DNA from: a virus
Taxonomy: Duplodnaviria > Caudoviricetes
Strand: one strand, 5' to 3'
DNA length: 64,000 bases
IMG/VR virus record: IMGVR_UViG_3300025000_000055
Part shown: piece by piece, positions 15,598 to 64,000 of the stretch
Numbering within the stretch: position 1 is the first letter of the stretch
Layout of the letters: each line of letters opens with the position of its first letter
Notes under the pieces: model-generated
What the model saw: only the letters and a program-made list of their open reading frames with translations
The model's database searches: none
What the model was told of the DNA's origin: nothing
Translations under genes and position numbers: made by a program

Positions 15598-16521
15598 ATG
15601 AAAATTTTATTGGTTGACACTAGTAGTAAGTTTATTGAAATAAATGCTTATTTAGCTACAAAGACTAAATATGAGCAGTTAATATTTCATCAGATTGGTA
15701 ATTTAGGTTCTTTAAAAAGTATAAAGAACTTTAACACTAAAAACTTCTTTGTTGCTGTAACAGATAATGATTATAATGACGGTTCTGGAATACAAAATCA
15801 AAAATTCTTTCACGATGGTTTAATGAAAACTGAATGTGTTGCTTTATTTAAGGAAAATTATTTTCCTAAAGAACCATGTCTTATTCATATTTTTCCAAAT
15901 AATATGTTTTTTAGAAGTCCTGGGCAAGCATGTGGAATTTCAAAACATATTGCTGATGCAACAAAGGAATTTGCTGAATTAAAAGCACAACAAAATAAAC
16001 TTATTGTTGGAGGTGGTTTCGTAGATGAAAGTTATGTATATAGAGAATTTATACCTCAACATAGAGTAAGTCAACAATTTAGTATGAAATTTGTTTCAAA
16101 GGAATGTGACAGTAGATTATTTAATACCGAAAATGTTTTATGGTATGCAAGTAGTTGTTGTGACCGATTAAAATATGGTTATACAAAGAAGGATATTGTT
16201 GAATTTGATTTAAAATGGGTGAATCAAATGATAGACAAATTAATTACAATGAAAAATACTGATACTAGTATAGTTCCAACATTAGAAGGTGAGTGGGTCC
16301 CTGCTATTATATATCTTGGTAATGATGGTCATTATACAATAACTAATGTTGATGGTAAATTTCTTCCAATAAAAACATTCCATCATTTATTACGAAAATG
16401 GTTTGAAAAAGGTGGGGACTTACCAAATAAACATTTTTGGGAACAAGCATTACCTCAAATAATAAATAGTAAGCCAGTACGAGCTATATTTAATAAACAT
16501 TTACAAGGAACTGTTATTTAA
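15598..16521 (+). CDS. hypothetical protein
   Basis: 307 aa with AGGAGG RBS. Confidence 0.75.
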   Translation: MKILLVDTSSKFIEINAYLATKTKYEQLIFHQIGNLGSLKSIKNFNTKNFFVAVTDNDYNDGSGIQNQKFFHDGLMKTECVALFKENYFPKEPCLIHIFPNNMFFRSPGQACGISKHIADATKEFAELKAQQNKLIVGGGFVDESYVYREFIPQHRVSQQFSMKFVSKECDSRLFNTENVLWYASSCCDRLKYGYTKKDIVEFDLKWVNQMIDKLITMKNTDTSIVPTLEGEWVPAIIYLGNDGHYTITNVDGKFLPIKTFHHLLRKWFEKGGDLPNKHFWEQALPQIINSKPVRAIFNKHLQGTVI

Positions 16522-17159: not shown

Positions 17160-17708
17160 TTATTCATTTACTTTATGTTTTTTTCCTTTTGGACATCTGC
17201 TCTTTGCTTTTAATAGTTTATGAGCTTCTTTGCGAATACTGATTTTTTGCCCATCTTGAATGTTCGTATATTGACCAACAAATTCAGAAACATCCTTCAG
17301 AACAATTGAACCGTTGAAATCTTCTTTAGGAATAAAGTCAAACTTCCTACCGGCATCGACATATTTATAAATGAGTTCAGAGCATACTTCATACAAACCA
17401 TCAGTATTTCTGAATTCATACGACTCAACAATACGCTGAGCTTCCTGTTTATCAACACCGAAGTCAAGTAAAATTGTTTTAATCATATTACGGAACAGTT
17501 GTACTGGAAATACTTCTTTAGTTACAAGTTCATTACCTTTGGTTGAAACACTTTCAACCTTATAGTCGATTTCATTCAAAAATGCTTTGGTTAATTTGTC
17601 GAAGTCACCACGACTAAATGAAACAATAGGTTTACCCTTTTTAGATAAGGTAATACCATTTTTAATTTCTTCAAATACCTCTGTAAAACTTTTAGTCACT
17701 TTTGCCAT
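17160..17708 (-). CDS. putative HU/IHF-like DNA-binding protein
   Basis: C-terminal GRKFDF...GSIVLK..SEFVGQYTNIQDGQKISIRK.AHK.LKAK parallels the HU beta-arm; Lys-rich tail; GGAGG RBS. Confidence 0.5.
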   Translation of the reverse strand: MAKVTKSFTEVFEEIKNGITLSKKGKPIVSFSRGDFDKLTKAFLNEIDYKVESVSTKGNELVTKEVFPVQLFRNMIKTILLDFGVDKQEAQRIVESYEFRNTDGLYEVCSELIYKYVDAGRKFDFIPKEDFNGSIVLKDVSEFVGQYTNIQDGQKISIRKEAHKLLKAKSRCPKGKKHKVNE

Positions 17709-19686: not shown

Positions 19687-22600
19687 TTATTTTTTAATAT
19701 TTAGACAAAATAAAATATATGATTTTAAATCTACTTCATATCTAATTTCATTGGGTATAGTATTTGATATTAATATAGGATAATTTTTATTAGACTCCAT
19801 TTTAGAATGTATATCCTCAATATATTGTTTTAGATGTATTAAAGAATTAAATGGTCCGTGAATTCCTAGTTGTTCCCCCCAAACAGTTTCAATCCAATAA
19901 ACCTTTTCATTTTTAATATAATAACATAAAGTATGATTAAATCCACCAGTATTTTCTTTTTCATTGTATTCAATAAAAAATAAACAATTAGCTTTATATA
20001 TTTTATTGTTATTAAATAAATTACGAATAAATATTGCTTGTTCATGAGATGAACCATTTTGAGTTTCAAGAAGTTCATCATCATTTTTTAATAAATTAAA
20101 TTCAGAGCTCTTAATATTATTTCTCATAAAATTATATACATCTTCATCACCATTAAAATTAGGTAAATCAGTTATATATAGTTCTGTAACAATATTATTT
20201 TCTTGTTTATTCATTATTTTTAATACATTTTTATCAACTGTATCTTTATTATAGTTTTCTAACTTACCTCTGGTTACAAAATAAGTTTCTTTTTGTTTAG
20301 TAAAATCATATGGTTTATATAAACTAGGATGTTTATCAATCATACCATTATTAGAAGCTTTTAATATTTCAGCTACAAATTGACTACAAAAATATTCATT
20401 TTCCCTATCAGTTTCTTTACCAATACTTATATTAAATAAACCAATAAAACTAAAACTTAATTTATCTTTTTTCTTTTTAAATTCATTTAGTTTATTTTTC
20501 ATTAAGTCTCTTTGTTCTTTAGTAACAAATATTACATAAAGGGAATAACTAGTATCTTTAATAACATCTTTAAGCAAACCATCTTTAATATCTTCATTAA
20601 TAAATGTCATATCAGAATCTTTAAATTTTCTACCAAAACTATACATATCATTTAAACTACTATCAAATGAAATACTTACATGACTATATGGATCGCCAGT
20701 AACAAACTTAATAACTTTAGCCATATTAGTATTAGTGTAAGTTAATAAAATAAATACTGGGTAAAGATTATTATTTGATTTATAAGATTCTTTAACAAAA
20801 TCTCTTTCACCCTCAAAATCAAATTGCCTATAATCTATAGTTAATTCCTCACCTTTTTTAATTTTATTTTTAGATTTATAAAAGTAAACTTTTTTCCCAT
20901 TTCTATTAGCTTGAACTAATACTAAATTAGGATTATTTGAATGATTAACAAATTGACCAGCTTTAGTTCGTTCATAATCTTTATCTGGATTACCAGTTTC
21001 ATTAACTTTCTTTATAGCTAATAATTTAGTATTATAATCAATACCTTTATTTGCAAATATACCTTTACCAGATATTTTTGAATCCTTAACATTATAGTAT
21101 GTTTCAGAAATATATGAATCATCTATCTTCTTTAAAGTTATAACTTCTAATTTTCTAGCACCACCAATATCATTTTTCATTTTATCATTTAAATATTCTT
21201 TAAATTGATAATCATTAATACTCTTTATTTCAATAACACTGATAATTTGTACAGGAGCCCCCCATTCAGTTTGATAAATATTATTCTCTAAATATTTATG
21301 TCTTTCGGCATATACACGTATAGTATAAACAATTTTACCAGAATTAAGTCTTTTTTTTATACTAACCCATTCGTTCTTTGGAAAAGTTATAACTGGTATT
21401 TTAATTTTAGTATTTTTTAATTCATTGGCATTAAAAAAACCTTCGTTACAAGGTATATCCCATTTCTTTTTAGCTTCTTCCTCCATTTTAACTAATCTAG
21501 TATAATAATCGGGTATTTCATCTAAATGATCTTTAGCTATCATTCTAGCTTTATCTAAATTTTTAGTGTGTTCCTGTTCAATTTTTATCCCTATTTTTAA
21601 TTGTTCAGAATCATAATTAGAATCTGGTCGTATATCATAACTAAGGTCAATAGCTTTTTCATCTTTATTCTCTTCTATAAAAGATTCTTTAATAAATTCA
21701 TCAAGAGATCTAATAAACCTTATATGTGTTTTATTAACCATGTCGCTTTTTTGTTCTTTAAACCCATATTTTTTAGCTAATTTGATAGATATATTATTAG
21801 TTTTTTTTATATTTAAAACAATTGATGTTATATCTCTTTTAGAACGATGACAGAATTGAATACCCTCATTCATTAAAACATGAGAAATACCTTTTCCACG
21901 AAACTCTTCTTTAATAAATATATTAAAGAAAGCATATTCTCTTTTAACCTTTACTTCAATAAATCCAGCATTTCTATTACCAACTTTATAAATGTATCTA
22001 AAAGATACTTTATTATAAAACTCCCTTGGTCCTAATTTTTCTTTATCTTTATTATCTCCTAATATTCTTAATGCACGTTGATATTCAGCTTCCATTATAA
22101 TATCAGTATTAATAATTTCATTATAAGATTCCATTAAAACAAATATAGGTCTGTTATCTTCACCATTAGATTCAATATATCTATCTTTAGCTTGTTTTAA
22201 AAATTCAAATATAGAATCATATTTTTTATCAATAACTTTGATATAACTAAAAGTTGTTTGACTCATTAATACTCTGTCTTTTAATTTTTCTTTTACTTTA
22301 TCAACTGCTATGATTTTATGATGGTTATTAGGATTTTCCCCACCTTGTTTGACTTCTATCTCTAATGCTAAAGAAACTATAAATACATCAGGAATATAAA
22401 ACTTTTCTTCACCTTCATATACATAATAATAAACATGAGGTGATGGTGTCATTACATCATCTGAATCAAATTGTAAAAATATATCTAAAAATTTTAATAA
22501 ATCTAATTCATATGAACCAGTATATGTTTTTTTATTACCATCAGACCATTCATACTCACCTGATATTTTTCTATTAGCTAACATTTTCTTTTGTTGTTCA

Positions 22601-22914
22601 GGACTACTTAATAAATGTATCTTACCATATTTACCAATCATCCTTTGTTTAAATATTTCTCTATATCTATCTTTACATTCAGGTCTTTCACAAAATCTTA
22701 AATATTTATTAGTAGTTTCATTCCATTTAGTGGGTCTTTTACATATAATACATCTTCCTTTATCTTTACCCGTTTTTACAAAATAAAAATATTGTGCTGG
22801 AGTAAAAGTTTTAGGAATCATACCCTCATGTTCTTGTTCAAGGTGTTCGTATAAATCTTCAATATGATTAAATTTATCTTCACATATATTACACTTAATC
22901 AAATTAAAACACAT
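19687..22914 (-). CDS. multidomain effector polyprotein: Zn-finger/PD-(D/E)xK nuclease, GNAT, DUF5661-like, unknown, SET, permuted NlpC/P60, transglutaminase-like
   Basis: YIPDVF..EIEVK; FRGKGIS; GIKIEQEHT..ARMIAKDHLDEIPDYY; SKISGKGIFA..FVNHSNNPN..KKGEELTIDY; YSHVSIS..YFCSQFVA; GSSHEQ..NHT..WIE. Confidence 0.8.
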   Translation of the reverse strand: MCFNLIKCNICEDKFNHIEDLYEHLEQEHEGMIPKTFTPAQYFYFVKTGKDKGRCIICKRPTKWNETTNKYLRFCERPECKDRYREIFKQRMIGKYGKIHLLSSPEQQKKMLANRKISGEYEWSDGNKKTYTGSYELDLLKFLDIFLQFDSDDVMTPSPHVYYYVYEGEEKFYIPDVFIVSLALEIEVKQGGENPNNHHKIIAVDKVKEKLKDRVLMSQTTFSYIKVIDKKYDSIFEFLKQAKDRYIESNGEDNRPIFVLMESYNEIINTDIIMEAEYQRALRILGDNKDKEKLGPREFYNKVSFRYIYKVGNRNAGFIEVKVKREYAFFNIFIKEEFRGKGISHVLMNEGIQFCHRSKRDITSIVLNIKKTNNISIKLAKKYGFKEQKSDMVNKTHIRFIRSLDEFIKESFIEENKDEKAIDLSYDIRPDSNYDSEQLKIGIKIEQEHTKNLDKARMIAKDHLDEIPDYYTRLVKMEEEAKKKWDIPCNEGFFNANELKNTKIKIPVITFPKNEWVSIKKRLNSGKIVYTIRVYAERHKYLENNIYQTEWGAPVQIISVIEIKSINDYQFKEYLNDKMKNDIGGARKLEVITLKKIDDSYISETYYNVKDSKISGKGIFANKGIDYNTKLLAIKKVNETGNPDKDYERTKAGQFVNHSNNPNLVLVQANRNGKKVYFYKSKNKIKKGEELTIDYRQFDFEGERDFVKESYKSNNNLYPVFILLTYTNTNMAKVIKFVTGDPYSHVSISFDSSLNDMYSFGRKFKDSDMTFINEDIKDGLLKDVIKDTSYSLYVIFVTKEQRDLMKNKLNEFKKKKDKLSFSFIGLFNISIGKETDRENEYFCSQFVAEILKASNNGMIDKHPSLYKPYDFTKQKETYFVTRGKLENYNKDTVDKNVLKIMNKQENNIVTELYITDLPNFNGDEDVYNFMRNNIKSSEFNLLKNDDELLETQNGSSHEQAIFIRNLFNNNKIYKANCLFFIEYNEKENTGGFNHTLCYYIKNEKVYWIETVWGEQLGIHGPFNSLIHLKQYIEDIHSKMESNKNYPILISNTIPNEIRYEVDLKSYILFCLNIKK

Positions 22915-22995
22915 CCTTTCTTTTAAGCTATTATGTAAATGTTTTTTATATGTGCAAAATATAAATAAATAAAAAAAATCAGGTAGATATTTTAT

Positions 22996-23403
22996 CTACC
23001 TGATTTTTAATTTTTTTTCCTTTATGAATTCCATTAACATCATCTCAATTGTTTTAGTTATATAACCTATTATATATGTTTCAGTATAATAGTATTCTAA
23101 ACTTTTCATGAAGGGCTTATTAAATGACATTACAACCTTATGAACTAATTCACTTAAATCTTTTTCAAAATCATAGATCATTCTTATATCTTTTAATTCA
23201 TATTCCAATTTGTATTTTTCTAAAAATACTCTTTTTATAGTATCTTCTATAATACCCATTAAAATATCTAAGTCTTGAATATTATTTGTAGTAGGAGTAT
23301 TTTTCTTATTTTTTATATGATTAATTATACTAATTAAAAAACAGAAAATAGTAAAATAAGTAATAGATATTACACCTAATAATTTTATTAAATCAATATT
23401 CAT
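22996..23403 (-). CDS. hypothetical protein with N-terminal TM helix
   Basis: LLGVISITYFTIFCFLISII; late promoter at 23431. Confidence 0.65.
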   Translation of the reverse strand: MNIDLIKLLGVISITYFTIFCFLISIINHIKNKKNTPTTNNIQDLDILMGIIEDTIKRVFLEKYKLEYELKDIRMIYDFEKDLSELVHKVVMSFNKPFMKSLEYYYTETYIIGYITKTIEMMLMEFIKEKKLKIR

Positions 23404-25727: not shown

Positions 25728-26108
25728 ATGCTAAATGATATTATTTCTGTATTCAATCAGCTTACTCGTAGTGAGTTGGCTGATTGTTCATTATTTGAAA
25801 ATATTATTAATAGACACTATGAAAAATTTAAATATTTTTATTCTATTATAGATAATATCAATTTAAAGAGTATAATAGATATTGACTGTCAAGAAGAATC
25901 AACAAAGTTAAATATTTATATTTCATTTAAAACAAAAAAAGAAAGAGATACATTTTTTAATATATTTATTAATAAAATTAATAATAGATGTAGTTTTAAA
26001 TATAAAGATTATTTTATTTTCAATGTTATGAGAGATACTAAATGTATTAATATAACAATAGAAAATAATGATATTATAATGGAAGAGGTGATTTATGGAT
26101 GCAAATAG
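25728..26108 (+). CDS. hypothetical protein
   Basis: AGGGG RBS; overlaps the start of the RNAP gene. Confidence 0.65.
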   Translation: MLNDIISVFNQLTRSELADCSLFENIINRHYEKFKYFYSIIDNINLKSIIDIDCQEESTKLNIYISFKTKKERDTFFNIFINKINNRCSFKYKDYFIFNVMRDTKCINITIENNDIIMEEVIYGCK

Positions 26109-29100
26109 AATTATATGACACTAAGAAATTTATTGAGGTTAATAATTTAAGAGAAATAACAAACTTAATTTTATTTGAGAAAGGGAATATTCCAACTGTT
26201 GATGGTTTATTATCAACAGATATTTTTGGAGTTTCGGCTAGAGAAAGAAAAGAAACATATGCTTATATCGATTTACACGGGCATTTCTTACACCCATTTA
26301 TATTTAAAACATTAAAACGAATGAATAAGAAATTTGAATCTGCTATATATGGTAATGTAAATTTTATAATTAAAGATGGTGAATTAATTGAAGATGAAAA
26401 TGGAGAAAGTGGGATAGAATTTTTATATAAAAACTGGGAGAAATTTGATTTTAAAAGAAATAATAGTATGATGAGAAATGAAAGAATTTCTGTTTTAGAA
26501 TCATATAAAAAAGATGTTCTATTTACTAAATATTGGATTGTTATGCCAGCTTTCTTTAGAGATGTAAATTTACAATTTGCAGCTGAAGGAAGAGTGTCAC
26601 ATCATGAGATCAATGATAAATATTCTAAATTAATTAGGTTCGCTTCTATAATTAATAATAATAATTTTGACTTTGTTTTAAATACAACTAAAGCAAAAAT
26701 TCAAGAAATGCTTGTTGAAATATATGATTTACTTAAAGGTAAAATAGAGAAAAAACAAGGGCTGATCCGTAAGTCTCTATTAGGTAAATCTATTGATTTT
26801 GGCGTTAGGAGTGTAAATTTACAATGCACGTGATTCTTTAATTGTCGGGGAAGCCTTTTAAATATCTTACTACCAAACTATATTAGTAATAATATAGTGG
26901 CGAAGGGTAATGCCTTAGGTATGGTAACAAGGTAAGAAATTAGGTAATCCGCAGCTAAGTCTCTTTATTTGTTGTGTTAAAATAAGTTTTTAATAATAAA
27001 TAAACTTTTTATTAAAGGAGGTGATAAGATTGTTTTTTATAAATATAATAACAGAAAAGGAACAATGGAAAAAAATTTATATTAAAAATAAAATAACAAA
27101 ATATAGTATTAGTTCATATGGTAATATTAAAAATGAAGAAACTAATTATATATTACATCCTGCTAAGGATTCAGATGGGTATTTGATAGTTTCACTATAT
27201 CTTAATTCAAAGCGGTATATTAGGAAAATGCATAGATTAGTGGGAATAGCTTTTATACCTAATCCTGAAAATAAACCTACAGTTAATCATAAAGATGGTG
27301 TTAAATCTAATAATTATGTTTATAATTTAGAATGGGCTACTTATTCTGAACAAATGGTTCATGCATTTGAATTAGGTTTAGTTGAAGGTGGAAAAGGTGA
27401 AAAAAATTCCATGTGTAAATATTCAGAAAAAATAATTCATAATATATGTGAATTATTAGAAAATGGATATAATCGTTCAAAAATATCTAAAAAATTAGAA
27501 GTACCAAAAGATTTAATACAAAGAATTGTATTAGGAAGAAGTTGGACATATATATCATCATTATATAATATAGATCCTAAAAAAAGTAAAACTCCATATT
27601 CAAAAGGACAAGAACACTATCATGCATCTTGTAATGAAGAGATGATACATTCAGTTTGTAAATTATTAGAAGAAGGAAAATTATCAATTAAGGAAATATC
27701 TAAAAAATTAAATATTTCTAAATATATAATAAAACATATTTTATACAATAATACTTGGAAACAAATATCATCTCAATATAACGTGGATAATTTTAAAAAA
27801 TATAGACATAATACAACAACAAATAAAGAGAAAAGTTCAACGACTATCGAAAACAATATGTTTATCATTAATATAAAAATTGGTAAACATAGGGTAAGTA
27901 GGTAAACTCACAAGTCAATTAATGGTGGGTTGAAATGGGAAACCATCAAAAAGATGAAGATATAGTCTAGTATCCTAGTGAAAACTAGGGACGTTCATTA
28001 GAGAACTGCATAGTCTGACGAACTATGTGAATACAACGAATTTCTGCACCTGTATTTAAAGCAAATAGACCAGAAGAAATGAAGGTTGACTTTTATAATT
28101 GTGGTATTCCATTGTCACAATGCTGTTCATTATGTACACCGTTTATGATAACATGGGTAAAAAGATTTTTTCAAAGAGAATTAGAAAGATTATATAATAA
28201 ATATCCAGTTAGATTAAAAACAGAAGAAATTATTTATGTTAAATTAAAATCTCCGGAATTATATTTTAATGATGAATATATTGAAAAGCAAATTAATAAA
28301 TTTATTTCTAGTTATGGTGATAGATTTGAAAAAATTAAATTACCTGTAGATGATCCAAAATATGATAAAAATATTTATTTAAGTTTCATCGGCAGAGAAT
28401 ATATTAAAGGAGTTCCAGAAACAGAATCACCCTTAATACAAAGGCCTGCTACATGGTGTGATATTTTATATCAAGCAGCAGTTGAAATTACCTCTGACAA
28501 ACATGTATATGTAACACGGTATCCTGTTTTAGATTATTTTGGTACTTTTCCTAATAAAATTCATGTGTTATCAACACATGAAACTATTCCAATGTTTGTT
28601 GGTTTTAGGGTATATGAGCACTACCCTAAAATAGATATTAAAATGCCTAAAGATAAAGTTTCTGTTGCCTTTGCTGATACAGTAACAATGTCAAACCTGT
28701 ATTTAACAGGTCTCGGTGGGGATTACGACGGCGATTTTACGTTCGAAGAACTTTGGTCGCTCAGCAGTAGTAATATTGCTGATAGCATTCTGTGAACGCT
28801 TAACGAGCGGTGTGTGGGTTATTAAGAATAAAGTTGGAAAGATAACCTATGCTAACGGTAGAAGCGGAAATAAGTGGTATTTGACAGCCGACGAATATGC
28901 TTCGTAAGAGAACCTAAGGACCTGAAATATGGTTAGCTTGGTAATACCGTGTTTTTATGAATTAACTTTTCCCAAAAAATAAAAAAGTATTAAATGCTCA
29001 ACAATTCAATGAGGTGAGTAATTTGTTTAAAATTTCAGAAGAGGAATCTAAAGAATGTAAGAAATATTTTGGTGTTATTTATATGATTATTGATAAAACA

Positions 29101-31476: not shown

Positions 31477-31728
31477 TTAATAATTAGTTTCCGGAATAAA
31501 ACTTTCTTTAATATGTTTTAATTTCTCTTCCATGTCTTTTTCTTCATCAAACTCTGGAATATCCTCGGCAAGTTTCTTAATTTCAATATCCTCGTCATCA
31601 ATTAATATACCAGTATCATCTAAAATTGCATCACGAATATCATCGTTATCCCCATTTGTACTCATGGCTTCAAATACAAATGTTTCTTGTTCACTTTTAC
31701 GAATAGTCTTTTTTAGACCAGATAACAT
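31477..31728 (-). CDS. small acidic protein, possible head/scaffold component
   Basis: Late promoter at 31753; VFEA and IKES sites. Confidence 0.6.
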   Translation of the reverse strand: MLSGLKKTIRKSEQETFVFEAMSTNGDNDDIRDAILDDTGILIDDEDIEIKKLAEDIPEFDEEKDMEEKLKHIKESFIPETNY

Positions 31729-61634: not shown

Positions 61635-62465
61635 TTATATCCTTGACATATAATGGGTAATATCTCTTTTTATTTTATCCTCAATTCTAACAATAAAAGT
61701 TGAACCATTTTCTTTTAAAATAGCATTTTTAAAATCAGATGTAACTTCCATACTTTCAGTTACAATTTCATAGATATTAGAAACTAATTTAATATTCTTC
61801 GATTCAGTTTTAATAAAATCAGCAATTTGAGATTCTTGAACTACTGTTAATACATTTTCTTGAAGACTGTTTCCACTAAGTTCAATATTTCTATTAATCT
61901 TTTTAATTGGTATGGAATCATCCCTATATGCTTTATCATGACTGGGTAAAATAACCCAATCATATGTAACAACATGCCCTCTACTATTGATTAAACCACC
62001 GGTAGCAGTTTTAACAACTTTAGCTAATGCTCTTAAACTAAAAGCAGGTTCCATTCCTTGTAATATAGATTTAGTCATATCTTTACCAAAATGATCATTA
62101 TCTAATGTTTGAATAGTCCCTCTTAATAAATTACCAGTTAAATTATATGTTAATATTTTATGGGATATTAATTTAGGATCAATGACTAATATACGTTTAG
62201 GATCATCTGATGTTGGATGTCCAGCTTCTCCACACCAAGAATTTTTTAATCTTAATTCATTTATATGAGGTGCACCTAATGATTCCATCATTGGTTTATC
62301 AATATATGTTCTACCATTTCTATTTCTTATATTAAATTCTTGTAATATTGTATCAAATTGTAAATAAAATAAATTATCTCTATTAATTCTTTGAATATTA
62401 GTTGGCTTACTTGGGTCCGAAACACACTCTCTTATGAGATAAGCAACAACTTCTTGTTTTTGCAT
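61635..62465 (-). CDS. prohead protease (T4 gp21/phiKZ gp175-like)
   Basis: NRNGRTY, GEAGHP (His), AFSLRA (Ser), VTYDWVILPS; late promoter at 62504. Confidence 0.85.
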   Translation of the reverse strand: MQKQEVVAYLIRECVSDPSKPTNIQRINRDNLFYLQFDTILQEFNIRNRNGRTYIDKPMMESLGAPHINELRLKNSWCGEAGHPTSDDPKRILVIDPKLISHKILTYNLTGNLLRGTIQTLDNDHFGKDMTKSILQGMEPAFSLRALAKVVKTATGGLINSRGHVVTYDWVILPSHDKAYRDDSIPIKKINRNIELSGNSLQENVLTVVQESQIADFIKTESKNIKLVSNIYEIVTESMEVTSDFKNAILKENGSTFIVRIEDKIKRDITHYMSRI

Positions 62466-62610
62466 TTTTTATATCAACTCCTTCTAATTTTTATAAGTAT
62501 TTTTAAATTATTGTTTTGGTTGTTCAGATAATTCTTACAAATAAAGTCTTTATTTGTAACACAAACAAATAGTTAAATGAAAATTGTAAATTTTAAGAGG
62601 GGTGAAGCTC

Positions 62611-64000
62611 ATGAATATAAACATAAATAGAGTTTTATCTAATGTGAAAGTTAATGTTATTAAAAAAGAATTTGATTATTTAAAAGAAAATTACTCGACT
62701 ATTAATTCTATTAATTACTTACAATTTGTACGTTCCCAACCAATTGATATTATATTTGAAAATTCTCAATATGTATTTTCAGAATTAAGAGAAGGATATA
62801 AATTATATAATAGAATTTTAAAATCTTTTGATTTATCATTAGAGCAATTACAAGTTCAACAAAATAAATTAAAAGAATATATTAGTAGGTGTAAAAATAA
62901 TGAATATGATAATAAAAGTCATATTTACTTATTGAATGAATGTGTGAAATTTATAGAATCAGAAATTAAATATAAAAATAGTTTTAAGTATTTAAAAGAA
63001 TCAATGATTTATGATATTCATTTTAATTATCTTCAACCAGTATTAGAAGATAATATTAGTAATATTATGGATGAAATTATATTAAATATAAATCACAATC
63101 CTACTCTTATAAATGAATATCAGGTACTTATTCATCATATAGAAAAAGAATCCGTTTTAGTAATTGGAAAAAATTTTCCTTTAATTTTAGCTAAAAATAC
63201 TGCTCTTATTCTAGCTATGGGTGGAATTATAGCAGGAACACTTCTTATCTTAGTTTTATCAGTACCCCTATTATTAGTGAATTCAATTATAGAAAAAAAA
63301 ATAGATAACACATTTATTGAATCATATAAATATTGTATACGAAAAGAAATATCAAGATTAAAAATAGTTAAAGAAGAAGATGAAAATAGAAAAAAAACTA
63401 TTGATAAGTATATTGAACAATTAGAATTAGCATATAATAAATTAGATGAATCTAAAGATAACAATACAGCCGTTAAAGAAAATTCAATAACAACTATAAC
63501 TGAGGATGAAAATGATTTAACGACAACTATATTAACTCAATTTATCAACACTTTAATATTTGATGAAGAAGAAGATAATGAAACTGAAGATATGCAATTC
63601 ACATTAGAAAATTTTAATATATTAATTAGAAATATAAGAAAATTACAAAATATAAAAGAAATGAATTGTTTACAAGAAGGCACTATAGATAATGTTGGCA
63701 GAAAAGTTGTTCATGCTGTACGATCTACTGCTAATAATATAGGTTCAGGTAGTTCCAGTATTAAAAAATCTGTTAATCATGTTGTAGATGCTTTTAATGA
63801 TACTATTGATAAGTATAAAAAGATGGAAGTAAATGAAAGACGTAATAGAATTATTGAAGGTGGTTCTTCATTTACTTTAATGAAAATAATTAAATATGGT
63901 ATTGCTGTAGGTTTAGTTTGGGCGGTTTCACCTGCTTTGGCTGCTATAGGTTTATTAACATCAGTTGCTCTTAATGTTCATGCTGATATTAAAGAAAGAA
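62611..64000 (+). CDS. 3'-partial large virion protein with TM helices (missing from the ORF track)
   Basis: ATG 62611 after GAGGGGTG; frame open to the window end; two hydrophobic hairpins; LKES and LQEG sites; late promoter at 62564. Confidence 0.75.
   Translation, partial: MNININRVLSNVKVNVIKKEFDYLKENYSTINSINYLQFVRSQPIDIIFENSQYVFSELREGYKLYNRILKSFDLSLEQLQVQQNKLKEYISRCKNNEYDNKSHIYLLNECVKFIESEIKYKNSFKYLKESMIYDIHFNYLQPVLEDNISNIMDEIILNINHNPTLINEYQVLIHHIEKESVLVIGKNFPLILAKNTALILAMGGIIAGTLLILVLSVPLLLVNSIIEKKIDNTFIESYKYCIRKEISRLKIVKEEDENRKKTIDKYIEQLELAYNKLDESKDNNTAVKENSITTITEDENDLTTTILTQFINTLIFDEEEDNETEDMQFTLENFNILIRNIRKLQNIKEMNCLQEGTIDNVGRKVVHAVRSTANNIGSGSSSIKKSVNHVVDAFNDTIDKYKKMEVNERRNRIIEGGSSFTLMKIIKYGIAVGLVWAVSPALAAIGLLTSVALNVHADIKER

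Follow-up and report, generated by a model that had tools for sequence, protein, structure and literature searches.

The window, a stretch of 64,000 nucleotides from the virus record IMGVR_UViG_3300025000_000055 (IMG/VR; Caudoviricetes), contains on its minus strand a single open reading frame (ORF) of 1075 amino acids at positions 19687..22914, which occurs in identical copies on four contigs, the longest of 180 kb. The initial annotation had described it as a seven-module effector polyprotein that is packaged into the head, cut by a prohead-type protease and injected; the frame is indeed open throughout, and all seven modules are real. The true start is uncertain by four codons because the gene callers and all homologs use TTG 22902, residue 5 of the ORF (protein P0002, 1071 amino acids, 100% identity), and not ATG 22914, which is directly abutted by a GAAAGG Shine-Dalgarno sequence. 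The modules are listed below together with the sites at which they end, a slash marking the putative scissile bond.

22129..22914, minus strand: Module 1 (residues 1-262), C2H2 and C4 zinc-finger PD-ExK nuclease (phrog_15137), ending PIFVLME/SY
22090..22128, minus strand: spacer (residues 263-275), a hypervariable linker between LME/SY and IME/AE
21685..22089, minus strand: Module 2 (residues 276-410), GNAT acetyltransferase (Pfam), ending FIKE/SF
21442..21684, minus strand: Module 3 (residues 411-491), DUF5661 (Pfam, residues 435-480, E = 2e-13), ending in a degenerate PCNE/GF
21103..21441, minus strand: Module 4 (residues 492-604), predicted ASCH/YqfB-like fold (AlphaFold2 and Foldseek), ending YISE/TY
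20788..21102, minus strand: Module 5 (residues 605-709), SET methyltransferase (Pfam SET, phrog_28741), ending FVKE/SY
20182..20787, minus strand: Module 6 (residues 710-911), permuted papain-like peptidase (YaeF/YiiX, C92; model and Foldseek), ending IVTE/LY
19687..20181, minus strand: Module 7 (residues 912-1075 and stop codon), putative transglutaminase-like module (transitive homology) with Ser at the nucleophile position

The nuclease matched phrog_15137 over residues 5-242 (E = 3e-65) and DUF7487 (E = 2e-5). Its residues C8/C11/H24/H29, C55/C58/C75/C80 and D176/E185/E187/K189 are kept in 115-120 of 120 sequences; within the PD-ExK signature P175-D176 ... E185-I-E187-V-K189, D176 and K189 are found in 120/120 and E185 and E187 in 119/120. 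Residues 302-401 of the GNAT module matched Acetyltransf_10 (E = 7e-9), with Acetyltransf_1 and _7 also above the cut-off (PF00583 and PF13673: 36.1 bits at a cut-off of 23.6 and 33.3 bits at a cut-off of 20.7). Module 4, previously listed as an unknown domain, is a real module, and its predicted identity is now an ASCH fold. At E<=1e-3 it has 134 homologs, the majority of them separate proteins of ~100 amino acids, and its AlphaFold2 model reached a predicted local distance difference test score (pLDDT) of 90.6. The top Foldseek matches were YqfB, PH0355 and ZmASCH (probability 1.0, TM-score 0.5-0.6, E = 3e-3, none at E<=1e-3), of which YqfB is annotated as an N4-acetylcytidine amidohydrolase. 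Pfam ASCH (PF04266) scored 17.6 bits against a cut-off of 21.2, and a Module 4 profile searched against PDB sequences gave chance-level matches only.

The SET domain (PF00856) was detected at residues 638-695 (E = 1.5e-7, 32.2 bits at a cut-off of 22.4; phrog_28741, E = 1e-14) with the motifs NHS (657-659) and ELTIDY (690-695). For Module 6, a permuted NlpC/P60-type peptidase had been proposed, and the fold agrees: residues 716-907 were modeled at pLDDT 93-98, with flanks below 50, and matched 3kw0, 2if6, YaeF (E = 1.9e-5), YiiX and YebB in Foldseek. The order is permuted, His745 preceding Cys843, and both residues are invariant in 57/57 sequences; the Pfam C92 score is below the cut-off (13 bits versus 27). 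The model thus supports assignment of Module 6 to the permuted YaeF/YiiX papain-like peptidases. The suggested transglutaminase-like fold of Module 7 is supported only transitively, through modules of P0031 and P0049 that are 36-38% identical to it and match Transglut_core at 5e-6; in addition, an Atlas feature score of 0.95 links it to DUF553/transglutaminase-like clusters. Its catalytic triad is not intact: Ser replaces the catalytic Cys (GSSHEQ aligned with GNCHDQ), and His and Glu are kept. No stand-alone word-sharing homologs of Module 7 were found. The Ser form may use serine as its nucleophile, or it may be an inactive module that only binds; the homolog P0004 holds both Ser and Cys forms. 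A model of residues 596-1075 was confident for the peptidase only, the SET and C-terminal modules remaining at pLDDT 30-55 (alignment too shallow).

The initial annotation had further pointed to xxE sites at the module boundaries. All seven are present where it had placed them, but xxE alone does not exceed chance. Plain xxE was rejected as evidence for cleavage (hydrophobic-x-E: 23 occurrences against 20.7 expected); it is uninformative because Glu makes up 8.5% of the polyprotein (91/1075 residues). The informative motif is hydrophobic-x-Glu followed by Ser/Thr and an aromatic residue: [LIVM]-x-E-[STAGL]-[YFW] was counted five times where 0.61 would be expected by chance (P = 4e-4 for a motif set post hoc), and all five copies are located at module borders.

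LME/SY at residue 260, IKE/SF at 408, ISE/TY at 602, VKE/SY at 707, VTE/LY at 909: strict-motif sites
IME/AE at residue 273: second site of the first linker
CNE/GF at residue 489: degenerate site, aligning with ISKE/SF in P0003 and VLKE/SY in P0004

The CNEG site named earlier is therefore present, but as a degenerate copy of the canonical site. Three sequence-level tests had been named for the sites: that they fall outside folded domains, are conserved in homologs and coincide with module shuffling. On the first, the sites were found in linkers flanking the modeled domains. Relative to the confidently modeled peptidase domain, VKES comes 8 residues ahead of the first strand and VTEL 2 residues past the last helix; ISET comes 6 residues past the last ASCH strand, which ends at residue 596.

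The other two tests concern the homologs, and both came out as proposed. The family comprises 240 proteins by word-indexed search and, in IMG/VR, 171 loci, many on contigs of 200-280 kb. Common to the wider family is the nuclease only, plus the papain-like peptidase in 55/121 members; between the two, GNAT, NUDIX, metallophosphatase, P-loop kinase, M23 and SET modules occur. A hydrophobic-x-E-[SAGT] motif is found within 40 residues after the nuclease in 67/72 non-redundant homologs, compared to 25% of background windows, and within 25 residues before the peptidase in 27/48, compared to 19%; the P values overstate independence because the sequences are related. The second Glu of the spacer, E275, is kept in 104/120 homologs. 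Glu and the hydrophobic P3 residue persist even in homologs of only 40-60% identity, in linkers that otherwise differ in both length and sequence. Of the 121 homologs, 66 do not have the embedded peptidase and still keep the post-nuclease motif, indicating that the cutting enzyme would act in trans. Fixed junction DNA as a recombination signal was not seen: codons at the junctions vary at silent positions, and it is therefore the peptide that is conserved, not the DNA.

Two relatives, P0003 (1469 amino acids) and P0004 (1511 amino acids; also on L004, a 250-kb IMG/VR genome), are 81-83% identical to the polyprotein where aligned. They insert or swap modules exactly at the motif, namely an M23 peptidase, a second SET-like piece, a Cys-bearing transglutaminase-like module and unknowns, and every extra module is flanked on both sides by the motif. 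For example, the extra module of P0003 beside the SET position is bordered by FVKE/SS and NLTE/SY. P0004 contains eight sites and P0003 seven, that is six strict ones and DFVKE/SS. The site after the GNAT module is kept in both (FVKE/SF in P0003, FIKE/SF in P0004), and in P0004 the same two-site leader (LISE/SY...IIIE/AEY) is repeated ahead of its GNAT module.

The initial annotation had treated the nuclease as one effector among equals; it is instead the conserved anchor of the protein. Orthologs of Module 1 were identified in AR9 (g233, 46% identity), phiR1-37 (g237, 38%) and PBS1 (gene 124), these three at 38-47%, and in BpSp (gp288) and DC4 (00081), and the gene is located next to a gp25-like baseplate wedge gene in AR9, BpSp, DC4, phiR1-37 and the window. 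By this comparison, the nuclease appears to be a core gene of the AR9/PBS1/phiR1-37 group to which six enzyme modules have been appended in this lineage. Both stand-alone nucleases (246-310 amino acids) and fused forms (372-1519 amino acids) occur among 16 complete or near-complete IMG/VR genomes examined. In these, fused forms were seen only in phages whose capsid protein is 58-89% identical to that of this phage; one phage in this range, G018 (59%), has a stand-alone nuclease. The nuclease stands alone in ten IMG/VR genomes, and nine of these proteins end in ...PIFMV, ...KIFMP, ...IIML or similar, which coincides with the point at which fused forms read PIFVLM-E/S. As stand-alone orthologs stop at the first site, a cut there would recreate the stand-alone protein.

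In Fusobacterium phages JD-Fnp1, 4, 6 and 7, nuclease residues 50-227 matched (37-38% identity) inside a region annotated as 'DNA gyrase subunit A', which raises the possibility of a nuclease of this family carried there by an intein or an insertion.

The following features surround the polyprotein gene:

22932..22943, minus strand: AR9-type late promoter AACA-N6-TA, AACATTTACATA (read from the sequence), 29 nt upstream of ATG 22914 and followed by GAAAGG and the start codon
22974..23008, minus strand: terminator-like hairpin, 16-pair stem followed by a T run, closing an upstream ORF of 135 amino acids
19642..19682, flagged plus strand but palindromic: hairpin with a 17-pair stem directly 3' of the stop codon
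23523..23942: gp25-like baseplate wedge gene adjoining the polyprotein gene

The late promoter reported earlier is thus present just upstream of the gene. AACA-N6-TA is the consensus of AR9 late promoters (PMC5312081), and in the window it occurs 12-90 nt upstream of 13/62 ORFs compared to 4% expected, among them the ORFs of the protease, the neighboring head protein and GroEL. With this promoter and a hairpin on either side of the unit, the terminator-like one at 22974..23008 would set the polyprotein gene apart as its own transcription unit. The AR9 ortholog g233 is a late gene with an AACA-N6-TA promoter, its expression values being 0.47, 141 and 1092 at 5, 20 and 40 min (PMC5312081). The phiR1-37 ortholog g237 is annotated as 'phage structural protein'.

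A protease that may process the polyprotein and a possible further substrate are encoded at the end of the window:

61635..62465, minus strand: prohead (head maturation) serine protease, the proposed processing enzyme (PHROG and Pfam)
62602..63999, plus strand, running off the window: head-module neighbor, 516 amino acids at full length (L007:8305-9855), with YLKE/SM at residues 128-132

The prohead-type assignment of the former was confirmed: it matched phrog_3014 (1e-19) and phrog_207 (3e-16), and both S77 (28.5 bits, cut-off 27) and S80 (24.1 bits, cut-off 23.4) scored above the Pfam cut-offs. S77 proteases of the T4 gp21 type cut after Glu with a hydrophobic residue at P3 (Leu/Ile-x-Glu), and phiKZ gp175 cuts after S/A/G-x-E. 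A specificity of T4 or phiKZ type had been suggested; the junctions resemble the T4 pattern with its hydrophobic P3 but not the phiKZ pattern with its small P3. The protease itself contains VVQE/S at residues 209-213, and a cut there would leave a C-terminal piece of 64 residues. SPN3US gp245 removes its own 64-residue C-terminal propeptide and cuts A-x-E, with Ser preferred at P1' (PMC10052503).

The capsid gene is located just past the window end (reached via contig L007). Its product of 575 amino acids matched only proteins of AR9/PBS1, Staphylococcus S6-like, Listeria LPJP1 and Yersinia phiR1-37 jumbo phages, at ~25% identity. The record of the phiR1-37 capsid protein states 'mature N-terminus at Ser87', which corresponds to VMLQE/SMIGG. 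In a MAFFT alignment this position coincides with LELIKE/SMDIG, the sole [LIVM]-x-E-[STAG] site in the 575 residues, and with AILQE/S in AR9, EILME/S in DC4 and NIME/S in LPJP1. The site is kept in 19/22 capsid proteins of the clade, including 12/15 from complete IMG/VR jumbo genomes bearing the nuclease. The junctions LME/S, IKE/S, VKE/S and ISE/T share the pattern of the capsid site (LIKE/S), and the junction motif matches the capsid-protein maturation site of this clade, for which phiR1-37 supplies the annotated N-terminus. Co-variation of the two motifs across clades was not informative, as the capsid site is hydrophobic-x-E/S almost everywhere.

With its YLKE/SM site and its own AACA-N6-TA 38 nt upstream, the 516-residue neighbor is a candidate further substrate. 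Other window ORFs with the strict motif may likewise encode substrates of the protease: 17160-17708 (minus strand; RIVE/SY at residue 93 of 182), 31477-31728 (minus strand; HIKE/SF at 73 of 83), 26099-26833 (plus strand; an RNA polymerase beta fragment with SVLE/SY at 132) and 15598-16521 (plus strand; FVDE/SY at 142). Between the 516-residue protein and the capsid gene, L007:7578-8291 (minus strand) encodes a 237-residue protein with a very acidic, Asp/Thr/Asn-rich first half and DILKE/A at residues 7-11, a candidate scaffold-like protein. Adjoining the capsid gene, ~8 kb past the window end, L007:4511-5749 (minus strand) encodes a 412-residue protein with an HEVGH zincin motif; g118 at the same position in AR9 is annotated as 'zincin protease'. 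By motif and position, the HEVGH protein appears to be a second protease of the head module.

Taken together, we favor with moderate confidence the explanation that the polyprotein is a late-made virion precursor which is packed into the head, cut into separate enzymes by the prohead protease and injected. The late-expressed precursor, with the nuclease at its N-terminus, would enter the prohead, where the S77/S80-type protease would cut after each junction Glu. Cleavage by the prohead protease is expected because the joints, short exposed linkers with hydrophobic-x-Glu ahead of Ser/Thr/Gly/Leu and mostly Tyr/Phe, share the P3-P1-P1' pattern of the capsid maturation site of the clade. The products would be a nuclease with a near stand-alone C-terminus and free GNAT, DUF5661, ASCH, SET, YaeF-like peptidase and transglutaminase-like proteins; DUF5661 and ASCH would stay joined if the degenerate CNE/GF were left uncut. 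The freed enzymes would then exit the capsid with the DNA and act ahead of any phage gene expression. A more tentative extension, to which we would give slightly less than an even chance, is that in AR9/PBS1-like jumbo phages the zinc-finger nuclease of the virion works as an all-purpose handle for loading, so that any enzyme placed C-terminally on a hydrophobic-x-Glu/Ser linker would be packed, freed by the capsid-maturation protease and injected.

The sequence-level predictions of the initial annotation were borne out, and its interpretation as a whole is partly supported. We infer packaging, cleavage, ejection and the enzyme targets, that is the functional chain, from analogy, the one 'structural protein' annotation in phiR1-37 and a weak complex prediction. 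For the latter, protease residues 1-212 and linker residues 248-287 gave an ipSAE of 0.45 (best control 0.00), with a partner pLDDT of at least 54 and runs that had at least 76% of their contacts in common. In calibration, 51/78 solved complexes and 2/108 mismatched pairs reached the pass mark; at scores of 0.60 or lower, however, only 5 of the 78 solved complexes passed, as did all 4 of the passing mismatches. The calibration of the tool thus marks the predicted protease-linker complex as weak, and several further points weigh against the proposed processing. The gene adjoins the baseplate gene, outside the head module, so the nuclease could be a tail or baseplate part that never meets the prohead protease. 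The virion evidence is only the annotation note in the phiR1-37 record, and two shallow virion proteomes (23 proteins for BpSp, 15 for DC4) do not list the nuclease ortholog. The protein has neither a short T4-type N-terminal capsid-targeting peptide nor a long cleavable N-terminal propeptide of the phiKZ/SPN3US kind; its N-terminus is the conserved C2H2 finger (C8, C11, H24, H29), and the first site is at residue 262. All mapped SPN3US cleavages take off propeptides and do not split enzymes (PMC10052503). The P2' residue is aromatic at the polyprotein junctions but Met, Val or Ser in the capsid protein. Finally, the enrichment statistics rest on a motif that was defined after inspecting the data, and the sequences compared are mutually related.

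The same observations were weighed for three other explanations. The protein might remain an uncut 'polyvalent' polypeptide of 125 kDa, packaged or not, in which the motif is an inherited flexible linker that moves with the cassettes. In its favor, polyvalent proteins such as the N4 virion RNA polymerase, or TraC1 and Sog, are delivered at full length (PMC5512222), modules can be inherited together with their linkers, and the two closest relatives have long collinear stretches in common. Against this, Glu and the hydrophobic P3 are kept at 40-60% identity while the linker otherwise varies, silent positions vary as well, the same pattern occurs at the capsid maturation site, and stand-alone orthologs stop at the first site; we consider an uncut protein unlikely. 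It is quite unlikely that the polyprotein, instead of being injected, works as a late protein within the cell that makes it or at the cell wall, for example in host DNA degradation, in late modification of phage or host proteins, or as a tail-associated wall hydrolase in lysis or entry. The substrates of GNAT, SET, ASCH, NUDIX, metallophosphatase and P-loop kinase modules are in the cytoplasm and not in the wall, a motif of the prohead-protease type at each joint would serve no purpose outside the head, and the phiR1-37 ortholog is annotated as structural. Such a role would fit the adjoining baseplate wedge gene, the M23, YaeF-like and transglutaminase-like modules of the relatives, the absence of the nuclease ortholog from the two small virion proteomes, and the published description of jumbo-phage NlpC/P60-type proteins as wall hydrolases associated with the tail (PMC7824862).

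The cutting enzyme, too, might be another one than the prohead serine protease, namely the polyprotein's own permuted papain-like peptidase (residues 710-911) or the zincin-like protease encoded next to the capsid gene. The papain-like peptidase is the commonest partner of the nuclease (55/121 homologs) with invariant His and Cys; the 66/121 homologs that keep the post-nuclease motif and have no papain-like module argue against it. For the zincin, the HEVGH protein adjoins the capsid gene and AR9 g118 carries the corresponding annotation. Cleavage after Glu with a hydrophobic P3 is the habit of S77 proteases of the T4 gp21 type (compare A-x-E for SPN3US gp245), the capsid protein bears the same site, and neither zincins nor YaeF-like enzymes are known to be linked to this specificity. 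Autoprocessing by embedded (metallo)peptidases is the published model of Iyer et al. (PMC5512222); for the protein studied here, cutting by either of these enzymes is very unlikely in our view.

Several known systems resemble the proposed precursor in part. Polyvalent proteins (Iyer, Burroughs, Anand, de Souza, Aravind 2017, PMC5512222) likewise join many unrelated enzymatic domains, including GNAT and nucleases, in one polypeptide, are found in a late or structural gene context and are predicted to be delivered with the DNA and processed into units. With seven modules of different folds, the polyprotein falls within their range of 2-15 distinct effector domains, and its phage origin is evident from the protease, the capsid protein, RNA polymerase fragments and GroEL. 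In contrast, polyvalent proteins are built on hubs such as zincin-like metallopeptidases, ArdC-N, DarA/DarB, MuF or N4 RNA polymerase and are processed by embedded peptidases, the text of the paper containing no papain or NlpC term (PMC5512222); here, the anchor is a PD-ExK zinc-finger nuclease and the linkers carry the capsid-maturation motif. No Pfam or PHROG match to such hub domains was obtained in P0001, P0003, P0004, P0027, P0038, P0043 and P0051, and the chain itself contains no metallopeptidase.

The internal proteins IPI-III and Alt of T4 share with the polyprotein the hydrophobic-x-Glu motif, a protease of the S77 family, late expression and an enzyme cargo. The ADP-ribosyltransferase Alt is active as infection begins (PMC7411985). 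The T4 proteins, which gp21 cuts after Leu/Ile-x-Glu and which are ejected with the DNA, are single proteins from which an N-terminal targeting peptide of 10-20 residues is removed, whereas here a folded, conserved nuclease of 260 residues forms the N-terminus and six or seven internal sites would separate whole enzymes. The phages phiKZ, 201phi2-1 and SPN3US (gp175, gp245; S80) are also jumbo phages with virion and non-virion multisubunit RNA polymerases, in which numerous head proteins undergo cleavage after x-x-Glu, Ser being favored at P1', and the protease trims a 64-residue piece off its own C-terminus (PMC10052503). They differ in that their P3 is small (A-x-E; S/A/G-x-E) and not hydrophobic, and their mapped cuts remove or fragment N-terminal propeptides and release no enzyme series. 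AR9 g233, PBS1 gene 124 and phiR1-37 g237 ('endonuclease fused to N-terminal Zn finger domain') are, unlike the polyprotein, stand-alone proteins of 236-243 amino acids. A literature search for a phage enzyme polyprotein cut at prohead-protease sites found no precedent, and handle-based protein delivery is not described for phages in the literature searched.

If the polyprotein is packaged and cut, phage heads would deliver ready-made enzyme sets from one gene, in this case a protein methyltransferase, an acetyltransferase, an ASCH-type enzyme and two cysteine-peptidase folds. Such a set could be changed in evolution by cassette swap at a protease site, and it would account for the way in which jumbo phages equipped with an RNA polymerase of their own also disarm the host before anything is transcribed. 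The 240 homologs and 171 IMG/VR loci would then represent a large unexplored pool of host-takeover and anti-defense enzymes. Packaging and cutting would also make the order handle-linker-cargo a simple rule by which foreign proteins could be put into the capsids of laboratory phages from this group. If the nuclease is a loading handle, metagenomes would hold hundreds of different, rapidly reshuffled 'pre-made enzyme cocktails' on this one handle (SET, GNAT, ASCH, NUDIX, phosphoesterases, P-loop kinases, M23 and papain-like peptidases).

The window has a G+C content of ~24% and encodes a head maturation protease, split RNA polymerase subunits, GroEL, a family B DNA polymerase and a primase. No near-identical DNA was found among cultured phages, and the source appears from these comparisons to be an uncultured AR9/PBS1-like jumbo phage. 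Between the RNA polymerase beta fragments, an ORF at 27021-27905 on the plus strand encodes an HNH endonuclease (phrog_59, 8e-48).

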